A stretch of 64,000 nt of DNA, taken from a virus (taxonomy: Duplodnaviria > Caudoviricetes). The notes under the pieces were generated by a model, which saw only the letters and a list, made by a program, of their open reading frames with translations, was not told the DNA's origin and ran no database searches. The position numbers were made by a program, and so were the translations under genes. Of the stretch, positions 5,578 to 15,022 are shown one piece after another. Every line of letters starts with the position of its first letter. The stretch's first letter is position 1. Where the stretch lies: IMG/VR virus record IMGVR_UViG_3300037067_006113, positions 32,001 to 96,000 of that record; one strand, given 5' to 3'.

Positions 5578-5946
5578 CTATGTATGTTTCTTTCTCAATC
5601 TAATCCTTTTGGATTTTGTCATTTTTACTAATAATCGTAATCTTCTTTTAGTTTGTTCACTTCTCCTATAATTCTGAAATGTCCTTTCACCTTTCTTAAA
5701 CCTATAGGCGTACCCTAATTCCAGGTTTTTGTATGTACCTTTGTTATACACTGCTTCTTTAAGTTTGGCACGGACAGATTCTCCAATTAAAGGTTCCTTG
5801 AGGTTAATACCCCACTTAATTTTGTATTCTCGTGTAGTTATTTTGTGGTGTCTAGTTATATGACGCGCTAATGCTCTATACCACCTACCGCATTCTTCAC
5901 AGCGGTGTGCGTCAATTATTGGATCGTAATCAGGTTTTCCAAACAT
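5578..5946 (-). CDS. C2H2 zinc-finger (Ros/MucR-like) DNA-binding protein
   Basis: CEECGRWYRALARHITRHHKITTREYKIKWGI..PL. Confidence 0.7.
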   Translation of the reverse strand: MFGKPDYDPIIDAHRCEECGRWYRALARHITRHHKITTREYKIKWGINLKEPLIGESVRAKLKEAVYNKGTYKNLELGYAYRFKKGERTFQNYRRSEQTKRRLRLLVKMTKSKRIRLRKKHT

Positions 5947-5960
5947 ATTATTATAATGTT

Positions 5961-6008
5961 AATTTACTCTATAGAGCACCCTATAGCAAGGTGCTCAAAG
6001 AGTCAATT
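5961..6008 (-). terminator. long intergenic hairpin (terminator or processing stem)
   Basis: AATTGACTCTTTGAGCACC / GGTGCTCTATAGAGTAAATT inverted repeat after the LemA/TPM operon. Confidence 0.45.
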
Positions 6009-6405
6009 AAAAACCGCGACTTGTGCCACCTCCAGAGAACATACCTCCTCCAAAACCACCAAATCCTCCTCCAAAACTACTACCACCAAAGATTGGTGTA
6101 GAAGGTACTGAAGGTATTGAAGGTGTATAGTGGAAGAAATCACTATCGTCGTCTTCGTTCTTATCTTCAAACCATTTATCTAATTTATCTCTAAATGTTG
6201 GTTTTTTTGGTACCTCACAATTCAGACAAATTGCCTCCTTAGTTTCTGGATTAGACAATCTAAGTCCTAATCTTTTAAGAGTAACTAAGTCACCAGGTGC
6301 TATTTGATCTGCATCGATATTGACCATTAAATGACCGCAGTCATTACACTTAATGACTTCTACATTCTGTTTTTGTAATTCTATTAAATCTCCTACTTTT
6401 GGCAT
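6007..6405 (-). CDS. Zn-ribbon protein with Gly-rich C-terminus of the type normally found on TPM/YgcG proteins
   Basis: CxxC...CxxC; ends GGGFGGFGGGMFSGGGTSRGF. Confidence 0.7.
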   Translation of the reverse strand: MPKVGDLIELQKQNVEVIKCNDCGHLMVNIDADQIAPGDLVTLKRLGLRLSNPETKEAICLNCEVPKKPTFRDKLDKWFEDKNEDDDSDFFHYTPSIPSVPSTPIFGGSSFGGGFGGFGGGMFSGGGTSRGF

Positions 6406-6406
6406 G

Positions 6407-6958
6407 TTATTTTTTCACCTCTTTACTAATTGCTTCGACTCCTGATAGAGCTCCACCATTCCAATCATTATTTCTTAAGAATGGAACAACAGATTCGTCA
6501 AGAATTCTTCCAGCTTTAGCGTCATTAATTACTTCTTCAAGACCTCTTCCTACTTCAATTCTGACTTTTCGATCTTCGGTTACAATTAAAAAGATAATTC
6601 CATTATCTTTTCCCTTATATCCAGGCTTCCATTTATCAGCTAATTTAATTGCATATTGTTCTACACTTAGTGGTTGAGTAGTTTTAACAGTTACTACTGC
6701 CACCTGAGCTGTTTGATCAAGTGCTTTTAAATCAGATTCAATCTTTTGTTTAGTTTCTTCCTTTAAAACACCCGACAGGTCAACTACATAACCAGTAGGT
6801 TCGGGCAATACCAATCCTTGTTGCACTTTAGTTTCATATTCATTAAAAGAAGATATAGGTTTTGAATTTCTAATTACTGCCGCTGATATTGCCATTCCGA
6901 ATACTAATACAAAAGCAACTACAATTAATAGTTCAACTAATGAAAATCCTTTTTTCAT
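6407..6958 (-). CDS. TPM-domain (YgcG-like) protein with a type IV prepilin N-terminal leader
   Basis: GYVVDLSGVL, QVAVVTV, KDNGIIFLI, RIEVGRGLE; N-terminus MKKG/FSLVELLIVV. Confidence 0.9.
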   Translation of the reverse strand: MKKGFSLVELLIVVAFVLVFGMAISAAVIRNSKPISSFNEYETKVQQGLVLPEPTGYVVDLSGVLKEETKQKIESDLKALDQTAQVAVVTVKTTQPLSVEQYAIKLADKWKPGYKGKDNGIIFLIVTEDRKVRIEVGRGLEEVINDAKAGRILDESVVPFLRNNDWNGGALSGVEAISKEVKK

Positions 6959-6959
6959 A

Positions 6960-7550
6960 CTATTTCACCTCCAAATCTACTTTAGGAGCTTGGCTAGCAT
7001 CCTGTGTCTGAACCGTAAATAATGGCTTTTCTAAAAAATTAAATACTATAGCTAAAACATTTTTTGGAAATCTCTTAATATCAATATTGTAATCTCTAGT
7101 AGCTTCATTATATCTTTCACGAGCTACAGTTACTCTATTTTCTGTTCCAGCTAATTCGTCCATTAAACCTTTAACAGTTTGGTCAGCTTTAAGATTTGGA
7201 TAATTTTCCATAATTACCATTAATCTAGATAAAGCACCTTCGAGTTGAGAAGTAGCTTGAACTTTATCTTCCGAACCCATTGGAGCGTTAGCATAGTGAG
7301 TACGAGCGTCAGCAATATCTTTATATACCGCCTGTTCATGTGCCATATATCCTTTAGTGGAATTAGCAAGATTCGGAATTAAGTCATAACGTCTTTGATA
7401 TTGAGTTTCAACCTGAGACCATAAAGTTGATACAGTTTCTCGTTCGGTAACCATTGAATTATAGGAACCAGTTACCCAAGAAAATAACGACATGCCAAAT
7501 ATAACAATAGCAACTAATACAGATAAAATAACTATTTTTGTCTTACTCAT
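6960..7550 (-). CDS. lemA: LemA family membrane protein
   Basis: N-terminal TM; WSQVETQYQRRYDLIPNL, ENYPNLKA, GTENRVTVARERYN. Confidence 0.95.
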   Translation of the reverse strand: MSKTKIVILSVLVAIVIFGMSLFSWVTGSYNSMVTERETVSTLWSQVETQYQRRYDLIPNLANSTKGYMAHEQAVYKDIADARTHYANAPMGSEDKVQATSQLEGALSRLMVIMENYPNLKADQTVKGLMDELAGTENRVTVARERYNEATRDYNIDIKRFPKNVLAIVFNFLEKPLFTVQTQDASQAPKVDLEVK

Positions 7551-7568
7551 TCTTATTCACCTCCTCAA

Positions 7569-7943
7569 TTAATAACCTATCGACTTTAATAAATCTATTC
7601 TTTGAATTTGTAAATCCTCGTCTTCTTTATTAACTCGGTCTAATAAAGTTTTGTATACTTCCATATTTTTATTGCTTTTCTCAAATGACGAACGAACAAT
7701 ACGATCCGAGTATTCAATTCTATATGACGTATTTCTATATAATTTTTCGTCGATTGATTTAATTTTTAACCATACAAGGTCGTGGTCACAGTTATTAACT
7801 ATGACTTCTTTTGGAACTTCCTTGGTAATAGTTTCTGTTTTACTTTTTGGGGCAATGATCATTCCTAGTAGGAATGCACAAAATATTACAACTATTGTTC
7901 TAGTCATACTCCATTTTTTATCTTCATTATATATATTATTCAT
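7569..7943 (-). CDS. membrane-anchored hypothetical protein
   Basis: N-terminal TM; upstream TATAAT. Confidence 0.7.
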   Translation of the reverse strand: MNNIYNEDKKWSMTRTIVVIFCAFLLGMIIAPKSKTETITKEVPKEVIVNNCDHDLVWLKIKSIDEKLYRNTSYRIEYSDRIVRSSFEKSNKNMEVYKTLLDRVNKEDEDLQIQRIDLLKSIGY

Positions 7944-7971
7944 AATTCTCTATTAACTTGTTAATTATACA

Positions 7972-8646
7972 CTAATTTTCTGTTTTTTGCAATTTGTTTT
8001 TTAACTTATAGCGTCTTATCTTAATAAGAGCATTGCCAATGGCTAGTTTAGTCATACCAAAATGTTCGGACAATTCTTTATAGCTCATTCCTTTCTCTTT
8101 AAGTTCTAATATATTAGTATGTAGATTTAAAGTTTTATAATATAAACCTGGATTGTTATATCTAAATTTCCAATAATGTTTTTGACTGCAAAAAGAATGT
8201 TTACCATTTTTATATTTTCTATACCAATATGTATGAAATGGAGAATATTGTTTATTACAGTAACTACAAGTTAACATTCCTCGTCTTCGACTGGCGGCAG
8301 CTCTTTTTCTACAACGTTCAGAGCAATAAACCCACCTTCCGTTTGCATTATGGTTATATACTTTTTTACCACAAATTTTACATATAAATCTAAGTGCATT
8401 AAGTTTATTCTTTTTCTTTTCAATCATTTTTTTATGTATTTCCTCTTGTCTTCCGCTTGAATGACCTAGAACTTTTCTTACAATTTGTTCGGCTCTTTGT
8501 CTAGAAAAACCATATCTTTCTCCTATTTCCTCAAACCTCATTCCTTCATTAAATAGGTTGAATATTTCTATATCCCTTTTTGATATTATTTTTCTATTTT
8601 TCATATTATCGGCGACCCTTTCTTTTATCACTAGTTTTGATTTCAA
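7972..8646 (-). CDS. sigma region-4-like HTH and Zn-finger DNA-binding protein
   Basis: FEEIGERYGFSRQRAEQI; CxxC..YCSxxC; C-terminal second HTH. Confidence 0.7.
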   Translation of the reverse strand: MKSKLVIKERVADNMKNRKIISKRDIEIFNLFNEGMRFEEIGERYGFSRQRAEQIVRKVLGHSSGRQEEIHKKMIEKKKNKLNALRFICKICGKKVYNHNANGRWVYCSERCRKRAAASRRRGMLTCSYCNKQYSPFHTYWYRKYKNGKHSFCSQKHYWKFRYNNPGLYYKTLNLHTNILELKEKGMSYKELSEHFGMTKLAIGNALIKIRRYKLKNKLQKTEN

Positions 8647-13864: not shown

Positions 13865-15022
13865 TTATTTCCTTTCTTTTATTAGACCTAATTTATTAAG
13901 AATGGTAAGAAGATTTTTAACCACAAAGTCAATCTCTTCTCTTGTTGTATAACGACTTAAAGATAACCTTAAACTACCTTTAATCCATTCCTCCTCTAAG
14001 TCCATAGCATCTAGTACATGAGATACTTCTATACTACTTGCTGTACATGCTGAACCAGAAGCCGAAGCGATACCTTTTTCTGATAATAGATTTACTATAT
14101 CTTCCCCATTCAAATCTTTAAATGCAAAAGAGGCTATATGTGGAACGCGTTGTGTTAGGTGACCAGTTAATATAACATTAGGAACTTGTGCCATACTATC
14201 AATTAATATATTTCTAAGTTCGGTGATTTTATCATTATGACTAAAGTCAATCATTTCAATAGCCTTACCAAGTCCTACTATGTAAGGCACATTTTCTGTA
14301 CCAGCTCGTAATCCAAATTCCTGACCACCACCGTCTTGCTGTCTACTCATTGGTGTTCCATATCGTACATACAAAGCACCTATACCTTTTGGTGCGTGTA
14401 TCTTATGTCCAGTAAAAGATAATAAATCAACACCAAGGTGATCAACATTACAATCTAAATATTGGATAGCCTGAGTAGCATCTACATGAAAATAAATTGG
14501 AGAGTGCGTTATATGATTTAACCTTGTGAGCATATCCCCTATTTCTTTTATTGGTTGGATTGTTCCTACCTCATTATTGACATACATTACTGACACTAAA
14601 ACCGTATTTGGTTTAATTGCCTCTTCAATATCTTTTACCTTGACCATTCCATATTTATCAACTGGAACATACGTAACTTCTGCATTAAGGTGTTTACACG
14701 TTTCTAATACAGCTTTATGCTCAATTTGAGTAGTTATTATATGTGGTTTTTCATACGGAGAAGTTATAGACTCTATTAAACCTTTGTGTGCTAAGTTGAT
14801 AGATTCGGTCGAACAGGAAGTAAATACGATTTCATAGGGTTTTGCACCTAAAAAATCAGCAATAATTTTCCTTGCATTCTCTATACCTACTTTAGCCTTA
14901 CGACCCCATGAATGTGGCTCGGAAGCATTACCATACTTTTCCATAAAATATGGTTTCATAGCATTAAATACTTTTTTATCTACTTGTGTAGTAGCCGCAT
15001 TATCTAGATAAACTTTTTTCAT
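13865..15022 (-). CDS. iscS: cysteine desulfurase (IscS/NifS group I)
   Basis: YLDNAATT, IEHKAV, NNEVGT, FTGHK (PLP Lys), SGSACT. Confidence 0.95.
   Translation of the reverse strand: MKKVYLDNAATTQVDKKVFNAMKPYFMEKYGNASEPHSWGRKAKVGIENARKIIADFLGAKPYEIVFTSCSTESINLAHKGLIESITSPYEKPHIITTQIEHKAVLETCKHLNAEVTYVPVDKYGMVKVKDIEEAIKPNTVLVSVMYVNNEVGTIQPIKEIGDMLTRLNHITHSPIYFHVDATQAIQYLDCNVDHLGVDLLSFTGHKIHAPKGIGALYVRYGTPMSRQQDGGGQEFGLRAGTENVPYIVGLGKAIEMIDFSHNDKITELRNILIDSMAQVPNVILTGHLTQRVPHIASFAFKDLNGEDIVNLLSEKGIASASGSACTASSIEVSHVLDAMDLEEEWIKGSLRLSLSRYTTREEIDFVVKNLLTILNKLGLIKERK

Follow-up and report, generated by a model that had tools for sequence, protein, structure and literature searches.

LemA and TPM proteins are encoded by one of the most widespread gene pairs of the bacterial envelope without a settled function, and the locus that is analysed here raises the question of what such a pair does in a phage, where the TPM protein begins with a prepilin-type leader and a Gly-rich tail is found on a separate protein. 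The locus is part of a window of 64,000 nucleotides, i.e. the whole stretch of DNA that was analysed, which belongs to a 115-kb IMG/VR virus record of an uncultured phage (G000). A sequence-only reading of the window had described the locus as a rewired LemA–TPM operon and had proposed that its TPM protein is a phage pseudo-pilin, which could enter or block the type IV pili of the host.

That the gene set is carried by a phage, as this reading had taken it to be, is supported by the record itself: its completeness is estimated by CheckV at 100%, and genes for a tape measure protein and a head-tail adaptor are present. The source DNA was found in landfill and groundwater metagenomes. The LemA–TPM cassette is located within the replication/early module, flanked on one side by genes for a DnaC-like loader and a Mor-like regulator and on the other side by Ros/MucR, RecA-like and SSB genes, while the head and tail genes are distant. 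The window also contains 28 tRNA genes; a 385-aa protein of the phage is an IscS-like cysteine desulfurase, and the Pfam search of the ORFs of the tail and lysis region identified an M23 peptidase and a laminin-G tail fibre, and nothing else. None of the four proteins encoded at the locus was matched by the PADLOC defence-system models at E-values up to 0.01.

Our check of the reading frames placed four minus-strand ORFs at positions 6007–7943, exactly where they had been reported from the sequence, and their features are listed in the table. Three of them, encoding a LemA-family protein, a short TPM protein and a small soluble protein that we refer to as ZnGly, form a tight cassette with 1 nt between neighbouring genes. 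The fourth, upstream ORF is probably transcribed together with the cassette, but it had been counted as part of the same unit and this part of the description did not hold: the 124-aa product matches no Pfam, NCBIfam or PHROG family and has no homologue in any of the related loci, and since even the syntenic relative (L005) lacks it, we place it outside the cassette. In the scan for promoters and terminators, the site counts in the region were not above the shuffled expectation.

Features of the LemA–TPM–ZnGly locus, with positions in the window
Feature	Position	Strand	Description
Promoter-like site TTGCAA-17-TATAAT	7964..7992	-	Upstream of the four co-oriented ORFs; weak evidence
Upstream single-TM ORF, 124 aa	7569..7943	-	Probably co-transcribed; not a conserved cassette member
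LemA-family protein, 196 aa	6960..7550	-	PF04011, E 3.5e-52
Short TPM protein, 183 aa	6407..6958	-	Leader and anchor helix, flexible linker, TPM domain
Prepilin-type N-terminus: leader MKKG (residues 1-4), F+1, E+5	6872..6958	-	Helix to residue 29
TPM domain, residues 58-179, extracytoplasmic (inferred topology)	6422..6787	-	PF04536, PDB 7TBR, AF2
ZnGly, 132 aa, soluble	6007..6405	-	Small N-terminal domain, acidic DDDS-FF stretch, Gly-rich tail
ZnGly N-terminal domain, residues 1-80	6166..6405	-	C20xxC23, C60xxC63, M-x-N-x-D, SNP-x-T; alignments A2, A4
Detached Gly-rich tail, residues 104-132	6010..6096	-	FGG..GGFGGFGGG.F.GGG..RGF

The identity of the LemA protein is clear: its score against PF04011 is 176.6 bits, above the gathering score of 26.2, and its structural match is PDB 2ETD (1.3e-41); the NCBIfam model MamQ also matches it (1.5e-33), under the cut-off of that family. 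A single N-terminal membrane anchor precedes the LemA domain, the N-terminus being composed of the residues MSKTK, with Lys residues ahead of the helix, a TM helix (residues 6-25) and the motif GSYN. In diderm bacteria, the cellular LemA homologues are lipoproteins (..LSGC/GYN), and the end of the phage TM helix aligns with their lipobox Cys-GYN, at the same G(S/T)YN position; because the diderm homologues are cleaved exactly where the phage helix ends, we infer that the LemA domain of the phage protein is located outside the cytoplasmic membrane.

The TPM protein is equally well assigned, with residues 58-179 matching PF04536 (E 3e-39; 134.3 bits against a gathering score of 22.1) and with PDB matches to 7TBR (1.1e-19), 2KW7 and 5ANP. 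Its AF2 model (mean pLDDT 86.8) consists of a helix at residues 7-28, a disordered segment at residues 29-45, whose length varies within alignment A1, and the TPM fold at residues 58-182, where the pLDDT exceeds 95; between the helix and the domain, 20-30 residues rich in Ser, Thr and Asn form a flexible linker. The chain stops at residue 183, 4 residues past the TPM domain, so that the earlier observation of a TPM protein that ends right after its domain, with the Gly-rich tail on a separate ORF, is correct; the single-chain architecture of the canonical YgcG-type (COG1512) proteins does not apply here, as there is no C-terminal TM helix and the tail belongs to the next ORF.

The N-terminus of the TPM protein, MKKG/FSLVE followed by a hydrophobic helix of approximately 25 residues, has the sequence of a class III signal, and the leader that had been recognised from the sequence is real. 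This copy falls just under the family thresholds (PF07963, 15.9 bits against a cut-off of 21.2; TIGR02532, 15.4 bits against 16.3), while orthologues from other viral contigs score 25-32.6 bits, over the Pfam cut-off, and many of them retain the leader. The motif is not one that arises frequently by chance, because a scan of all ORFs and all start codons of the 115-kb genome returned, besides this N-terminus, one internal-start false positive. Residues F5 and E9 are invariant in alignment A1, the rows of which were picked for having the motif. A pilin head is absent from the model, where the helix ends at residue 28 and gives way to the disordered linker and the TPM fold, and no other pilins were found in five phage records that carry the module.

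ZnGly carries the part that the TPM protein lacks: as had been noted, its Gly-rich tail, ending in SRGF, stands behind two CxxC pairs (C20xxC23 and C60xxC63) on a protein without a TM helix, and the absence of any hydrophobic stretch is a property of the family (maximum Kyte-Doolittle value 1.34 over 19 residues). The label “Zn-ribbon” that had been attached to the protein does not extend to the family, in which C20 is the only invariant cysteine; one sub-clade has lost the others, and zinc binding is therefore not a constant of the family. The family is small, with 171 homologues, and it comprises 48 clusters at 50% identity among 1.84 billion proteins. Nearly all matches are 70-181 aa in length, and the three long ones are weak, repetitive matches; longer or fused forms of the N-terminal domain were not found, a negative result that is weak evidence. 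Two homologues are labelled, according to their MAGs, “Patescibacteria group” and “Bacilli”. The protein matched no Pfam, NCBIfam, PHROG or PADLOC family, no PDB fold at E-values up to 0.001 and none of 50,697 GenBank phages, and the ESM Atlas search returned no informative neighbour. In the AF2 model, residues 1-55 have a pLDDT of about 80 and the tail is disordered; this same tail is nearly invariant across the family, and its pattern recurs at the ends of canonical cellular TPM proteins (e.g. P0088, P0104 and P0116). A scan of metagenomes and a second viral scan with the ZnGly alignment, which were swamped by the Gly-rich pattern, gave at least five loci and at least one locus. A complex of LemA, the TPM protein and ZnGly was also predicted, with ZnGly as the partner, and a control in which LemA was replaced scored equally, so that the prediction weighs on neither side of the question of binding.

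The triad of LemA, short TPM protein and ZnGly is found in at least nine viral contigs of IMG/VR, among them L001-L005, L013, L114 and L115, and apart from the syntenic relative the flanking genes are mostly unrelated. The domain matches, the tight layout and this conservation bear out the description of the locus as a rewired LemA–TPM operon. Variants of the arrangement occur at several loci: in L010, ZnGly adjoins a TPM protein that bears a tail; in L002, L013 and L115, a TPM protein with a plain TM anchor accompanies a TM-anchored LemA; in L002 and L013, a gene of the SPFH/Band_7 family follows ZnGly; and in L001 and L004, a third mini-ORF encodes a TM helix with a Gly-rich tail, whose last 9 residues (L001) or last 14 residues (L004) are identical to those of the ZnGly tail at the same locus. 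The window contains no SPFH gene, no PspA gene and no mini-ORF of this kind.

Cellular loci share the gene order, with lemA immediately followed by the TPM gene, and their TPM domains are 40-51% identical to that of the phage. The background claim that such loci typically encode Sec-signal proteins agrees with our comparison, where the majority of the 80 top-ranking cellular loci have a TPM protein of about 250-310 aa with a Sec signal, usually preceded by lemA. In these proteins, one chain combines the TPM domain with a Gly-rich tail (...GGGGASG(S/G/R)W at its end), which comes after a C-terminal TM helix, whereas the phage divides these parts between a short, N-terminally anchored TPM protein and a separate soluble protein that joins a new N-terminal domain to the tail, with the Gly-rich signature and the aromatic last residue unchanged; loci L001 and L004, with their third mini-protein, are further removed from the cellular form. 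The 80 best GTDB loci and 602 genomes of Chloroflexota and Omnitrophota, the latter all canonical, contained neither a pilin-leader TPM protein nor a ZnGly gene, in a sample drawn outside Patescibacteria; in this sample, the fusion of a pilin-type N-terminus with a TPM domain, which would have spoken against the sequence-only reading had it been common in host chromosomes, is absent. Likewise, 401 genomes from the phylum of Thermobrachium celere contain no ZnGly gene, and matches to the tail alone occur in two of them.

The significance of the leader is best judged from the relatives of the TPM protein, 1467 in total, the closest 120 of which were compared at their N-termini. The pilin-type leader, present in 32 of these 120 and therefore not unique to this phage, alternates with lipoprotein signals and with Sec signals or TM anchors; in a phylogeny built from the TPM domain alone, 17 parsimony changes are needed to account for the type of N-terminus, and at least 11 are forced by well-supported branches. 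ZnGly accompanies TPM proteins of every N-terminal type, a pairing that is deduced from the IMG/VR loci and from homologues whose contigs are equal in length. Since the type switches often while the ZnGly partner stays, the leader behaves as an exchangeable export signal or anchor, and it seems to belong to a set of export anchors that can replace one another, not to be a device for pilus sabotage. In several close relatives, the G-1/F+1/E+5 pattern is eroded but the helix is kept (MKKGTTPIE, MKKGATLIE). Conversely, G-1, F+1 and E+5 persist in proteins whose identity to this TPM domain is no higher than 40-50%; because their retention in most pilin-type members, across many lineages, goes beyond the needs of a plain anchor, the class III leader may do more than tether the protein.

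These observations bear directly on the proposal that the TPM protein is a pseudo-pilin, which would be cleaved by PilD and loaded into type IV pili or jam them, thereby altering attachment or excluding superinfection by pilus-dependent phages. The complete class III motif, its frequency among the closest homologues and the scores of the orthologues speak for this proposal, and it has a precedent in P. aeruginosa, where FimU-like minor pilins encoded by prophages are incorporated into the pili and block tip-binding phages (PMC12952977). The likeness to our protein lies in the phage origin and the prepilin-type N-terminus; however, the FimU-like proteins are complete pilins that replace a subunit of the host pilus, while here only the pilin-like signal and the first helix are found, and the pilin head, which modular pilins also possess, is missing. 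Together with the replacement of the leader, many times, by other signals within the same cassette, the eroded motifs, the invariant partners LemA and ZnGly, which have no link to pili, and the virulent-like appearance of the phage, with its 115-kb genome and its many tRNA genes, this makes the pseudo-pilin unlikely, and we do not retain this part of the sequence-only reading.

The same leader could instead be a true secretion or display signal, which would let the type IV filament machinery carry the TPM domain across the wall of a monoderm or CPR-like host, for action at the surface, a reading for which the class III-signal substrates of archaea offer a parallel. The flexible linker, the conserved motif and a LemA that is anchored by a TM helix, as in non-proteobacterial loci (Chloroflexota, Omnitrophota, Clostridia), would suit it, but the plain-TM TPM proteins of L002, L013 and L115 occur in the same type of cassette, again with a TM-anchored LemA, and the vicinity gives no evidence of filament genes; we regard it as improbable. 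An extended form of this idea, which we find just as improbable, is that phages of landfill and groundwater bacteria employ the prepilin peptidase and the type IV machinery of the host to deliver the TPM domain, as an enzyme or chaperone that is not a pilin, either for display on or through the wall or as a pilus cap against competing phages, with the soluble Gly-tailed adaptor linking the cytoplasmic side; if it were true, the TPM protein would be a phage-encoded cargo with a class III signal and not a mimic of a pilin. At the opposite end, the pilin-like N-terminus could be a mere TM anchor, the remnant of a recombination with the 5' end of a pilin gene, neither cleaved nor methylated: the sub-threshold scores of this copy, the eroded motifs and the free exchange with uncleaved TM anchors point in this direction, yet the survival of the three key residues in distant relatives and orthologue scores of up to 32.6 bits leave it doubtful. 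Finally, LemA matches phrog_1383, annotated as “virion structural protein” (E 2.1e-20), from which it might be argued that LemA, perhaps together with the rest of the cassette, belongs to the virion and is not an effector of the host membrane; with the cassette in the replication/early module, at a distance from the head and tail genes, and with the cellular envelope-protein architecture kept in all three proteins, this is very improbable.

The reading that we favour, with moderate confidence, is that the cassette is a phage-borne, split LemA–TPM module of the YgcG type that stabilises or remodels the membrane of the host, the leader serving mainly for export and tethering. The N-terminal helices would insert LemA and the TPM protein in the cytoplasmic membrane of the host, with both domains outside; the anchor of the TPM protein, as a class III signal, would probably be recognised and cleaved by the host prepilin peptidase, although its main task would be the one that is performed in the relatives by lipoprotein, Sec or plain TM signals. 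The module would be expressed together with the early and replication genes, the outside LemA/TPM pair would act on the envelope or sense it, and the host membrane would be stabilised or reshaped during the infection.

In this proposed module, the Gly-rich tail would be supplied in trans by ZnGly. The tail of the cellular TPM proteins is expected to be cytoplasmic because it follows the C-terminal TM helix, and the soluble tail protein of the phage may recruit, on the same side of the membrane, a scaffold of the SPFH/PspA kind. The near-invariance of the tail in the ZnGly family and its repetition on the mini-ORFs of L001 and L004 mark it as a functional unit; its occurrence on a separate soluble protein, and on a bare TM helix in these two loci, argues that it is an independent cytoplasmic interaction motif. 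Our search of the literature found no explanation for the conserved, aromatic-ended Gly-rich tail of TPM partners.

An architectural parallel to this arrangement comes from B. subtilis, where SamG, with a cytoplasmic Zn finger, SamH, with an extracellular TPM domain, and the SPFH protein SamI together bring PspA to the membrane (PMC8581546, PMC13713150, PMC11237479). The two systems would have in common an extracellular TPM domain on a membrane protein and a cytoplasmic Zn finger, putative in the phage, to which L002 and L013 add the SPFH gene; they differ in that SamG sits in the membrane and has other domains, while ZnGly is soluble and without a family match, in that the Bacillus operon (also known as YdjGHI) has no LemA, and in that the phage window has neither an SPFH nor a PspA gene. 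As ZnGly matches no family and no solved fold, it is compared with SamG by architecture, and the parallel does not imply homology; for the phage cassette we propose a membrane role resembling that of SamG/H/I.

Such a role would be in keeping with the behaviour of LemA proteins, which restructure membranes and drive the formation of vesicles when overproduced (bioRxiv 10.64898/2026.10.21.759321). The phage protein shares with the remodelling LemA/MamQ proteins the LemA domain (PF04011, 2ETD) and the N-terminal membrane anchor, and is set apart from them by being encoded by a phage; with its domain probably outside, it would be similar to the exported PaLemA2 and unlike the cytoplasmic PaLemA1 of the same study. 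For the TPM protein, the comparison is with class III signals that have been grafted onto functional non-pilin domains. Such signals occur on archaeal sugar-binding proteins and on modular pilins, e.g. PilB of S. sanguinis; the modular pilins have retained a complete pilin module, which the phage protein does not have, and unlike the systems compared, the phage cassette is not linked to any filament machinery.

The phage version can be regarded as a natural dissection of the LemA–TPM module, in which the TPM domain on the outside tolerates any N-terminal export or anchor signal and the tail is released on a protein of its own; at 132 aa, ZnGly offers a small handle for pull-downs. With the cassette, a set of phage genes joins the emerging picture in which LemA, TPM and SPFH/PspA proteins take part in the remodelling and repair of membranes.

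The phage genome that contains the window corresponds to an IMG/VR virus record of 115,271 bp (CheckV completeness 100%), whose source DNA is present in landfill and groundwater metagenomes; its G+C content is about 31%, almost all of its genes are located on the minus strand, 28 tRNA genes occur in the window, and among its products are a tape measure, a head-tail adaptor and a tail fibre protein. The cassette consists of three consecutive genes with 1-base gaps between neighbours, which encode LemA, a TPM protein and a protein that we refer to as ZnGly; the identities of the LemA and TPM proteins are unambiguous, and we consider the anatomy of the cassette, as described here, to be very probably correct. 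The cassette is located in the replication/early region of the phage: a DnaC-like ATPase and a Mor/sigma-r4-like protein are encoded upstream, while a Ros/MucR-like protein, a RecA-like protein and SSB are encoded downstream. The Mor-like and Ros/MucR-type proteins are two small regulators that flank the cassette. Another gene of the phage codes for an IscS-like cysteine desulfurase, with homologues in phage records of Listeria, Staphylococcus, Enterococcus and Acinetobacter.

Features of the cassette, its surroundings and related viral loci (L numbers, IMG/VR contigs)
Feature	Location	Strand	Match or remark
Single-TM protein, 124 aa	window, 7943-7569	minus	ORF, same orientation as cassette
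LemA	window, 7550-6960	minus	PF04011 3.5e-52; PDB 2ETD
TPM protein, 183 aa	window, 6958-6407	minus	PF04536 3e-39; PDB 7TBR, 2KW7
ZnGly, 132 aa	window, 6405-6007	minus	ORF; name coined in this analysis
Ros/MucR-type zinc-finger protein	window, 5578-5946	minus	PF05443 2.5e-9
Mor / sigma-70 region 4-like protein	window, 7972-8646	minus	extra Cys-rich motifs
Hairpin	window, 5974-5996	minus	7-bp stem GAGCACC...GGTGCTC just past ZnGly stop codon; T-run absent
IscS-like cysteine desulfurase	window, 13865-15022	minus	phrog_12787 3.5e-122
TM helix + Gly-rich tail mini-ORFs, 71-79 aa	L001:6102-6317; L004:5889-6128		directly after ZnGly
SPFH/Band_7 genes	L002:5939-7234 (431 aa); L013:6077-7393 (438 aa)		directly after ZnGly; PF01145 1e-14
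Tail-bearing TPM	L010:4926-5615		183-kb viral contig
ZnGly	L010:6047-6418		two genes further on

The comparison with cellular genomes bears out what the sequence-only reading had taken as background, i.e. that bacterial lemA is commonly followed by an exported TPM protein with its own Gly-rich tail, and also the claim that the phage layout departs from it, since the sampled cellular loci are canonical. In the best 80 loci listed among GTDB species representatives (phyla other than Patescibacteria), lemA is nearly always followed by a TPM protein of ~250-310 aa that carries a Sec signal and whose tail ends in ...GGGGASG(S/G/R)W, with no pilin-type leader and no ZnGly homologue nearby. Neither element was found in 301 Chloroflexota and 301 Omnitrophota genomes, where the matches start with the TPM domain and the frames are ~240-340 aa long; one locus from this set, initially considered an exception, proved canonical on inspection. 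The ZnGly profile, searched against 401 genomes from the phylum that includes Thermobrachium celere, matched nothing but the tails of two proteins of the canonical type.

The phage TPM protein begins with MKKG/FSLVE (slash, predicted cleavage site), followed by hydrophobic residues up to position 29. This leader scores slightly below the curated cut-offs (PF07963, 15.9 vs 21.2 bits; TIGR02532, 15.4 vs 16.3), while the leaders of orthologues on other viral contigs score above cut-off, at 25 to 32.6 bits; apart from the TPM protein, a motif scan of all ORFs and start codons of the phage genome returned a single false positive, at an internal start. In the AF2 model, which has a mean pLDDT of 86.8, a helix (residues 7-28), a disordered stretch (29-45) and a confident TPM fold (58-182) are seen, and there is no pilin head. 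Among the 120 closest of its 1467 homologues in a large protein collection, 112 are tail-less short forms and 32 have a pilin-type leader.

Members of the short-TPM family have one of four kinds of N-terminus: a pilin-type leader, a lipoprotein signal, a Sec signal that can be cleaved, or a plain TM helix. On a maximum-likelihood tree built by quick search from 132 columns of the TPM domain alone, the pilin label requires 17 changes by parsimony, and at least 11 are forced by well-supported branches; the count is rough, because the columns are few and many forks are unresolved, but a single origin of the pilin-type leader is excluded all the same. ZnGly shares contigs with TPM proteins of each N-terminal type, a pairing deduced from contigs of identical length in the homologue listings and read directly in the IMG/VR loci. 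In the clade nearest to the window, several members lack G-1, F+1 or E+5 but retain the helix; in L005, a phage syntenic with the window, the N-terminus is non-pilin; and no other N_methyl match was found in five module-bearing phage records. Because the N-terminal type switches, ZnGly pairs with all types, motifs erode and the five records contain no other N_methyl match, the leader is best read as one of several means by which the TPM domain is exported and tethered.

The sequence-only reading had proposed a phage pseudo-pilin that enters or blocks type IV pili, for which prophage FimU-like pilins offer a precedent (PMC12952977); the exchangeable leader, the absent pilin head and the partners without a pilus link speak against it, and this claim is not supported. 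Nevertheless, the likelier outcome is predicted to be that the host prepilin peptidase cleaves the leader, because its motif is well conserved where the TPM domains share only 40-50% identity with the window copy. Two less probable alternatives to the export-and-tether reading are that the class III signal may serve display or secretion, and that the leader may be a purely vestigial anchor. That LemA is a virion component, as the PHROG label of its match ('virion structural protein') would have it, appears improbable for a gene located far from the structural genes.

ZnGly has no TM segment; it contains two cysteine pairs (C20xxC23 and C60xxC63), an acidic stretch (DDDS-FF) and a Gly-rich tail with a terminal Phe. 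In its AF2 model, residues 1-55 form a small domain rich in beta structure (pLDDT ~80) and the tail is disordered; a fold search with this model gave no match. There are 171 homologues (117-165 aa among those listed), none with a Pfam domain; several have been named 'YgcG' by JGI because of their tail, which is the most conserved part of the family alignment. The N-terminal domain profile retrieves only 48 clusters at 50% identity from 1.84 billion representatives, nearly all of 70-181 aa and 33 with a clear Gly tail; no fusion with TPM was found, and no match occurs in 50,697 GenBank phage records. Three longer proteins retrieved with the N-terminal domain profile (P0282, P0283 and P0289; 375-969 aa) match it weakly (E 4e-5 to 4e-7, 3-6 stretches each) and may be unrelated. 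In one sub-clade (e.g. L013, L114, L115; alignments A2, A4), three of the four cysteines are replaced, CxxC becoming ..ETGV.. and ..ALGV.., while the M-x-N-I-D-A-D and SNP-x-T motifs are retained; the fold thus seems able to survive without zinc.

The order LemA–short TPM–ZnGly is conserved in L001-L005, L013, L114 and L115. Apart from L005, these contigs have hardly anything else in common with this phage, and therefore the triad moves as a unit; no homologue of the 124-aa ORF was found in any of them or in L010. The mini-proteins of L001 and L004, by their composition, represent one more fragment, the third, into which the canonical TPM protein is divided; their last 9 and 14 residues, respectively, are identical to the ZnGly tail of the same locus, which suggests a common partner or recent copying. 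L010 has both a fused and a detached tail, and thus the detached tail is not always a substitute for the fused one.

With respect to topology, LemA of diderm cellular loci is a lipoprotein whose lipobox ends in ...SGC, followed by GYN. In LemA of the phage and of the non-proteobacterial loci (Chloroflexota, Omnitrophota, Clostridia), the TM helix is flanked by Lys and its end coincides with the same G(S/T)YN; by homology, the LemA domain would lie outside, beside the TPM domain. The canonical TPM tail probably faces the cytoplasm, since a TM helix separates it from the exported domain, and the detached tail would be on the same side, since ZnGly has neither signal nor TM segment and most members have the cysteine pairs.

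According to a 2026 preprint (bioRxiv 10.64898/2026.10.21.759321), thirteen LemA proteins restructure E. coli membranes, and LemA1 and LemA2 of P. aeruginosa, which associate with PspA, promote the formation of vesicles. In B. subtilis, SamH, whose TPM domain is extracellular, and SamG, whose zinc finger is cytoplasmic, bring the SPFH protein SamI, and via SamI also PspA, to the membrane (PMC8581546, PMC13713150); the samGHI operon is echoed by the SPFH genes that follow ZnGly in L002 and L013. In a comparative study, TPM was proposed to act much like a chaperone within membrane complexes (PMC11237479). On the basis of the LemA preprint, the SamGHI parallel and the SPFH genes, we tentatively propose, by analogy, a role in membrane stabilisation or remodelling: the phage module may act early, maintaining or reshaping the host membrane, with ZnGly as its cytoplasmic adaptor.
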